Part shown: in pieces, positions 54,412 through 54,650 of the stretch
How the letters are laid out: every line of letters begins with the position of its first letter
Numbering within the stretch: the first letter of the stretch is position 1
DNA from: Escherichia coli
Lineage (GTDB): Bacteria > Pseudomonadota > Gammaproteobacteria > Enterobacterales > Enterobacteriaceae
NCBI RefSeq assembly: GCF_003334785.1
Contig: NZ_QOWV01000015.1
DNA length: 64,000 nt
Direction: 5' to 3' (one strand)
Made by a program: the position numbers and the translations under genes
The notes under the pieces: generated by a model
What the model saw: only the letters and a program-made list of their open reading frames with translations
Database searches by the model: none
Told to the model about the DNA's origin: nothing

Positions 54412-54650
54412 GACAATGTCCTGACCGGGGTATCCATAAAACACATCATCGCCCCCAGCAAACATGCATACATGAACAACAAGCCGTGATGGTTTTCGCG
54501 TTCATGCAGGCATAGCGATTGATGTGCATATGGTCTCGCCTGACTGAAAGTATTCAGTCCGTACGTGCCACGTTTTGCAACGAGTATGTTGACACGTACA
54601 TTTCCGGAATCTGGAAATCGGCTACTCCCCAAATGAGGGCGCAACCTTAA
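54412..54650 (-). promoter_or_regulatory. yybP-ykoY-family Mn(II) riboswitch in mntP 5' leader
   Basis: Minus-strand leader contains UUGGGGAGUAGCC (reverse complement of ggctactcccca at about 54632-54643), the conserved 5' core; known for E. coli mntP; boundaries approximate. Confidence 0.6.

Follow-up and report, generated by a model that had tools for sequence, protein, structure and literature searches.

The window, which is the whole stretch of 64,000 nucleotides of Escherichia coli DNA that was analysed, carries the genes manZ, yobD, and mntP in this order on the minus strand, followed by the convergent genes rlmA and cspC. All positions given here are those of the window. A 551-nt query around the mntP leader shows 100% identity to several E. 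coli chromosomes, and it is found in 5423 of 5426 complete genomes. The start of mntP had been placed at 54411 on the minus strand in the preliminary description, and the RefSeq annotation of the identical DNA has the same start, which corresponds to K-12 position 1905688. The list of open reading frames (ORFs) starts the gene at an in-frame ATG at 54465 (53845-54465, minus strand, 206 aa); the 18 codons that this version has in addition to the annotated 188 aa are riboswitch platform sequence. The conserved AUG of the platform also shares the mntP frame in leaders of the Enterobacter type. The 3' ends of mntP (minus strand, 53845) and the convergent rlmA (plus strand, 53848) overlap by 4 nt. 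In K-12 the small annotated gene yoaL (1901573-1901731) is found upstream of yoaE and overlaps its start; yoaE belongs to the TerC family, as does the Mn exporter Alx.

No terminator-like site was found in the interval between yobD and mntP, and both PGAP and the K-12 RefSeq record leave this interval free of annotated features. It has been established that the 5'-UTR of mntP is a yybP-ykoY riboswitch that controls translation in response to Mn2+. Table 1 lists the features discussed here, including an 81-aa ORF that spans the leader.

Table 1. Features of the mntP leader and its surroundings (positions in the window).
Feature	Position	Strand	Basis and remarks
mntP coding sequence, 188-aa Mn2+ exporter	53845-54411	minus	RefSeq annotation of identical DNA and ORF listing
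81-aa ORF, regarded as spurious	54408-54653	minus	ATG at 54653-54651; TGA at 54410-54408
Shine-Dalgarno (SD) sequence AGGA of mntP	54419-54422	minus	Sequence, 7 nt upstream of the AUG; retained across species as [AU]GGA or GAGG
Helix B, alternative platform hairpin	54424-54459	minus	GCUGGGG (54459-54453) with CCCCGGU (54430-54424), 7 pairs
Anti-P1.1 helix (helix A), 3' strand GGCGAUGAUGUGUUUUAUGG, with the conserved platform AUGs	54434-54453	minus	Minimum free energy (MFE) fold of full leader and pair counts
Helix A, 5' strand CCAUAUGCACAUCAAUCGCU, consisting of the P1.1 3' strand and linker	54514-54533	minus	Pairs with 54453-54434
Lineage-variable insert hairpin of the platform	54464-54513	minus	Indels; 10 of 14 pairs covary where present
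Aptamer for Mn2+, a four-way junction of the yybP-ykoY family, about 110 nt	54527-54636	minus	RF00080 match, MFE, pair counts, RNAalifold
GGCGAGACCA segment	54527-54540	minus	Invariant or nearly so; in P1.1, 3 of 6 pairs with double changes
P4 hairpin, length varies between genera	54542-54559	minus	7 of 7 pairs compensatory; 93.6% paired
P3.1 (10 bp), L3, and P3.2 with GCAA tetraloop	54561-54599	minus	99.7-100% paired
P2 hairpin	54600-54618	minus	6 pairs, 99.8% paired, 3 compensatory; indels in loop only
Conserved 5' core UUGGGGAGUAGCC (end of P1.1, 5' strands of L1 and P1.2)	54620-54632	minus	Invariant in 67 species
Transcription start of mntP	54636-54640	minus	54636 for a 225-nt UTR, or 54640 for a 229-nt UTR
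Putative extended -10 element TGtTAAGGT	54644-54652	minus	Near-invariant in 69 species; likeness to sigma-70 consensus
Putative -35 element TTGTTT	54668-54673	minus	Invariant in 69 species, 18 nt upstream of -10; likeness to sigma-70 consensus

When 69 promoters were aligned, the arrangement TTGTTT-N18-TAAGGT, with a TG one base before the -10 hexamer, was found to be almost invariant. The extended -10 puts the transcription start seven nt downstream, at 54636, in agreement with the numbering used in the literature. The 5'-UTR has been given as 229 nt; the published residues A11 (in L1) and A48 (the first nucleotide of L3) match the sequence only if +1 is at 54636, which makes it 225 nt. The published UTR length and residue numbering thus bear out the earlier estimate of a leader of about 230 nt, its length being 225-229 nt (54412-54640, minus strand).

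Two inverted repeats lie upstream of the promoter. The distal one (54774-54792 and 54815-54833) has 19-nt arms that are 89% complementary; within it are ACATAGCTTAGGCTATAT and TAGCCAAAGCTATGT, at a distance of about 140-195 nt from +1. These are boxes that we take to resemble MntR operators, and they would presumably fit an activation of mntP by MntR. A permissive Rfam scan also gave matches to miRNA families (mir-282, mir-4662, and mir-355) on both strands at 54763-54844, and these were rejected as artefacts of the inverted repeat. The second repeat (54687-54708 and 54731-54752) is AT-rich and has 22-nt arms with 77% complementarity, with the putative MntR boxes on one side of it and the promoter on the other. 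GTTATCAATAAAGCAATGAAATAAT is part of this repeat, which could correspond to the site for Fur that has been described at mntP; the region (54687-54752) is poorly conserved across genera.

The leader was searched against Rfam in two ways, by a default scan of 5 kb (52-57 kb) with gathering thresholds, and then by a permissive E-value scan of the leader alone (a 501-nt search). The default scan did not report RF00080 anywhere in 52-57 kb, and its only match was to the cspA family. This match is to RF01766, the 'cspA thermoregulator', and it is strong (135.5 bits) and covers 52488-52948 on the plus strand in the yobF-cspC region. It falls largely in the part of the model that encodes the cold-shock protein, and is for this reason a marker of a csp paralogue and not a demonstrated thermosensor. 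The permissive scan gave RF00080 (Manganese, yybP-ykoY) at 54542-54638 on the minus strand with 41.6 bits and an E-value of 6.3e-10, or about 1e-7 when scaled to the whole 64-kb window. All other Rfam matches in the leader had E-values above 0.01, leaving RF00080 as the only significant one. The match ends at 54542, and the 3' strand of P1.2, L1, and P1.1 is thus not covered by it.

The yybP-ykoY covariance-model search proposed in the preliminary description accordingly has two outcomes, a significant match when permissive thresholds are used and none at gathering thresholds. The default scan misses the element because 41.6 bits is just below the gathering score of 45. The absence of a covariance-model match had been named as grounds for giving up the riboswitch, and had the default scan been relied on, this would have been a false dismissal. 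Eight orthologous leaders score from 42.7 to 53.1 bits and thus fall around the cutoff. Those from Salmonella, Klebsiella, and Enterobacter are below it (42.7-44.2 bits), while those from Citrobacter youngae and Cedecea are above it. The alx leader of K-12 gives no RF00080 match even at E≤10. As the orthologues are spread around the cutoff and the validated alx riboswitch is not detected, the gathering threshold under-calls the enterobacterial members of the family. The low score is a property of the model in Rfam release 15 and not of the element, and this threshold miss is also why RefSeq genomes carry no feature in the mntP leader.

The 5' core motif of yybP-ykoY riboswitches that had been recognised in the leader is real, but it is found at 54620-54632 and not at 54632-54643, where it had been placed about 12 nt off. 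The 64-kb window has a single copy of TTGGGGAGTAGCC, on the minus strand, while 0.04 occurrences would be expected by chance. For comparison, 80 mntP loci from Enterobacteriaceae were collected, of which 73 had usable leaders; these contained 67 distinct aptamers that were used for the structure alignment. GGGGAGTAG is present in 71 of the 73 leaders and GAGACC in 72, and in 71 of the 73 loci the leader is linked to mntP, the downstream coding sequence being annotated as the manganese efflux pump MntP. The L1 internal loop has GGGGAGUAG on its 5' side opposite GAGA(CC) on its 3' side, and the GAGACC at 54537-54532 is invariant in all 67 species. So is ACAUACU of L3 at 54589-54583, whose first nucleotide is the A48 of the literature. 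The conserved A-rich L3 loop that makes up the metal site in this family is hence present in the mntP leader.

The MFE structure of the 115-nt E. coli aptamer is a four-way junction consisting of P1.1/L1/P1.2, P2, P3.1/L3/P3.2, and P4 (-38.5 kcal/mol, z=-4.1). RNAalifold gave the same 36 pairs for the 67 distinct aptamers, 17 of them compensatory. Counting of pairs over the 67 species showed that 96.6% are standard pairs, and that 18 of the 36 have changed on both sides. In a column-shuffle control none of 500 alignments scored as high as the aptamer, and when the partners were slid relative to each other only 24-47% could pair. The indels in the aptamer sit in the loops of P2, P3.2, and P4. 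The MFE, RNAalifold, and the pair counts thus all support a two-legged four-way junction, with P1.1-L1-P1.2-P2 as one leg and P3.1-L3-P3.2-P4 as the other. A fold prediction had been suggested as a way of checking the leader, and it recovers the structure expected of the family. Taken with the RF00080 match, the covariation, and the published work on this leader, the identification of a Mn(II) riboswitch in front of mntP stands.

The distance from the core to the AUG of mntP varies from 164 to 223 nt across the leaders, by differences that are not multiples of three, and includes an insert of 0-50 nt. When the full 240-nt leader was folded, P1.2 and P2-P4 were kept, while P1.1 was broken and helix A was formed (-84.4 kcal/mol, z=-3.7). 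In the alignment of full leaders from 67 species the 18 pairs of helix A are 96.4% paired, and nine of them show compensatory changes. One stretch of the helix, for example, reads AACUGC/GCAGU in most genera; Escherichia has AAUCGC/GCGAU in its place, and Cedecea and Buttiauxella have AACCAU/AUGG[CU]. The G-run of L1 pairs with a CCCC tract beside the SD sequence in the same MFE structure, but these pairs never vary in the 67 species and are uninformative for this reason. Helix B, which encloses the 3' strand of helix A, makes use of the same CCCC tract; it is 99.4% paired and has two compensatory pairs in a single clade. The 50-nt segment that separates the two strands of helix A in E. coli is an insert that is missing in 35 of the 67 species, among them those of Enterobacter, Kosakonia, and Cedecea. 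In its hairpin E. coli has 12 extra nt (54480-54500) as compared with the four representatives of other Escherichia clades, and E. albertii differs by one further nucleotide.

P1.1 and helix A are mutually exclusive, and compensatory changes are found in both, in three of the six pairs of P1.1 and in nine of the 18 pairs of helix A. The comparative data hence support both states of the P1.1 switch, as would be expected of such an element. With the aptamer enforced, ViennaRNA does not open the SD sequence at equilibrium (mean unpaired probability 0.29 vs. 0.40), which fits reports that the folding has to take place during transcription. When the alignment was inspected by eye for a conserved anti-SD partner, none that was convincing was seen. 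A mini-hairpin of the SD sequence and AUG in the MFE structure of 270 nt was considered as a conserved gate and rejected, as it is not conserved in other genera.

The 81-aa ORF is found in the ORF listing as had been stated (54408-54653, minus strand). It had also been claimed that it lies entirely in the leader and is most likely not a gene. The latter claim is supported by its start, its conservation, and the family tests. The former is not correct, since the ATG is located in the promoter, 11-17 nt upstream of the transcription start. The TG at 54652-54651 belongs both to the extended -10 element and to this ATG, and judging from the sequence the seemingly conserved ATG would simply be an A followed by the TG of the promoter. 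No SD sequence was found upstream of it, and the TGA overlaps the ATG of mntP (ATGA). The reading frame from the ATG reaches mntP in only seven of 72 species, while it stops after 11-64 codons in the others. The ATG of a shorter ORF of 27 aa (54529) is replaced by ATAG or ATTG in most genera. The leader of E. coli is somewhat depleted of stop triplets (4 vs. 8.7±2.1, P=0.02), and an open frame of some kind occurs in 35 of 72 leaders, where 13 were expected. This excess was considered as a coding signal and rejected, since different frames are open in different genera and since no more than 35 vs. 26 is left of it once the aptamer common to the leaders is held constant and shuffling is confined to the platform. 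No NCBIfam family matches the product at E≤1. Neither the curated K-12 annotation nor that of PGAP contains the ORF, but databases list it as a 'hypothetical protein'; it belongs to a cluster of 114 sequences, has a UniRef entry, and is found in identical form on at least 1000 contigs. It is very probably an annotation artefact, and these spurious calls were probably made because the riboswitch itself is not annotated.

Could the ORF still be a genuine gene that overlaps the riboswitch in a dual-function RNA, expressed from an upstream start or by read-through from yobD? The 81 codons are open, and the frame is also open in the four representatives of other Escherichia clades (77 aa) and in two other genera; the stop codon overlaps the start of mntP, and the many deposited copies could be taken as support. 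Read-through from yobD could place the ATG on an RNA, as there is no terminator-like site in between. A promoter-like site at 54709-54681 might provide another transcript, but it was rejected as the source of one carrying the ORF, since its 9/12 consensus match is at chance level (2 sites found vs. 2.3 expected) and its sequence is not conserved. The ATG sits within the extended -10 upstream of the mapped +1 and has no SD sequence, the frame is truncated in 65 of 72 species and has a 1-nt indel already in E. albertii, the product matches no family, and the variation is of the RNA type, with indels in loops and compensatory pairs. We therefore regard a real gene as highly improbable. That the sub-threshold match is a chance resemblance and the leader no yybP-ykoY element has practically no probability left; the shortfall relative to the cutoff of 45 and the empty scan at gathering thresholds would fit it, but not the E-value, the orthologues that reach 53.1 bits, the presence of all structural hallmarks with covariation, or the fact that exactly this leader has been studied experimentally.

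The alternative that the real transcript contains a translated upstream ORF of 13 codons (54449-54408) is quite unlikely as well. Its UGA overlaps the mntP AUG, and its translation would bring ribosomes to mntP and shield the leader from Rho when Mn2+ frees the AUGs from helix A. Of the 72 leaders, 67 have an AUG or GUG at this position, which belongs to the 3' strand of helix A that would be released in the Mn-bound state. The AUGA overlap of stop and start in E. coli also fits, as does the statement that Mn restores the coupling of transcription and translation. The start-like codon is, however, not kept in one frame relative to mntP. It is found in frame 0 in 18 species, where it would give an N-terminal extension of MntP, in frame 1 in 23, where more than 20 codons would run out of frame into mntP, and in frame 2 in 26. 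The frame differences are due to the indels of 1-2 nt that adjoin the SD sequence in the 67-species alignment. The conservation of the platform AUG is moreover fully explained by RNA pairing, as its bases form the 3' strand of helix A and pair with CCAUA...CAUC. Except for the G-run there is no clear SD sequence upstream, and a literature search found no report of an upstream ORF in the mntP leader, 'mntP' together with ribosome profiling being met only in reference lists. A slim chance is likewise all that we give to the idea that the conserved AUG and GUG codons in this strand (54449-54435) might serve as starts only when Mn2+ keeps P1.1 closed and the strand thereby stays unpaired. If it were true, a short, lineage-variable translation of the leader, ending on the AUG of mntP in E. 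coli, would link the state of the aptamer, the opening of the ribosome binding site, and the protection against Rho, and would thus supply a step that published probing did not resolve at this site.

We are thus highly confident that the leader is the known Mn2+ riboswitch of E. coli mntP, and that the 81-aa ORF owes its open frame to chance and is not expressed as a protein. To the identity with E. coli DNA, the fold, the covariation of both pairings, and the promoter conservation found in the present analysis, the literature adds Mn2+ binding, translational control, the effect of Rho, and the co-transcriptional switching point. It has been published that the mntP leader binds Mn2+ and that expression is raised in response. 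A crystal structure of the apo aptamer has been determined (PDB 4Y1M), as cited in PMC12153347. Co-transcriptional probing indicated that the aptamer is complete at about 110 nt, and that a platform helix forms from about 175 nt. The insert hairpin probably corresponds to this 'single helix'. At a 'riboswitching point' of about 205 nt L1 and P1.1 are disrupted if Mn is absent, and the strand freed from P1.1 finds a new partner in the platform. The MFE structure of the full leader, where helix A is formed and P1.1 is broken, agrees with this published strand invasion. Probing in vitro displayed no clear Mn-dependent change at the ribosome binding site of mntP. It has further been shown that Rho terminates transcription in the leader and the early ORF of mntP, and that Mn partly relieves this termination by restoring transcription-translation coupling.

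These observations can be combined into a probable sequence of events. Transcription would start at 54636-54640 from the conserved TTGTTT-18-TGtTAAGGT promoter, and the first ~110 nt would fold as the four-way junction (P1.1/L1/P1.2, P2, P3.1/L3/P3.2, P4). If Mn2+ is lacking, P1.1 would lose its 3' strand, which together with the linker following it would be captured by a complementary segment about 75 nt downstream in the 18-bp anti-P1.1 helix, and the platform would take a form that allows little translation of mntP. Left untranslated, the leader and the beginning of the ORF would then be open to Rho, leading to termination of transcription. Mn2+ would raise the synthesis of MntP by allowing translation initiation, and by reducing Rho termination through the coupling of transcription and translation.

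As the riboswitch, its structure, and the link to Rho have already been published, the finding is correct but ordinary, and adds little biologically. Its value lies more in the annotation. In E. coli, Salmonella, Klebsiella, and Enterobacter a riboswitch that has been validated is overlooked by the Rfam model with its curated thresholds, which fails entirely for alx, and gene callers have repeatedly filled the unannotated gap with an artefactual 81-aa 'hypothetical protein'. Regarding the platform, covariation supports the anti-P1.1 helix and a hairpin beside the SD sequence, while the insert hairpin is dispensable in many genera. Such comparative data may help in dissecting how the ribosome binding site is gated.

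The element in the window is the same as the E. coli mntP (yebN) riboswitch of RF00080, the DNA being 100% identical to that of E. coli genomes. The numbering of A11 and A48, the four-way junction, the P1.1 switch helix, and the switching point at ~205 nt can all be mapped onto the window. There is no biological difference between the two; what differs is the annotation, as the Rfam release 15 score is below gathering and there is no RefSeq feature. [quoted passage not shown] The likeness to alx that had been suggested holds for the L1/P1.1 signature, as both leaders contain AAAGGGGAGUAA ... GUGAGACCUUG, but it does not extend to the whole element. The alx leader lacks P2 and therefore forms a three-way junction, it has a different L3 and contains elements of an intrinsic terminator, and it gives no RF00080 match at E≤10. 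Furthermore, alx responds to alkaline pH through Mn, while mntP does not.

The yybP-ykoY riboswitches of Gram-positive bacteria (B. subtilis yybP and ykoY, and L. lactis yoaB) have an aptamer of the same family and the same ligand, and they are also switched on by Mn2+. They control an intrinsic terminator, while the mntP platform of enterobacteria lacks a terminator-like site and works by way of translation initiation and Rho. In this respect mntP is similar to the E. coli riboswitches of the thiM, ribB, and lysC type, where ligand-controlled translation secondarily sets the level of Rho termination in the leader or early ORF. Those riboswitches are, however, turned OFF by their ligand, which promotes termination, while the ligand of the mntP riboswitch counteracts it.
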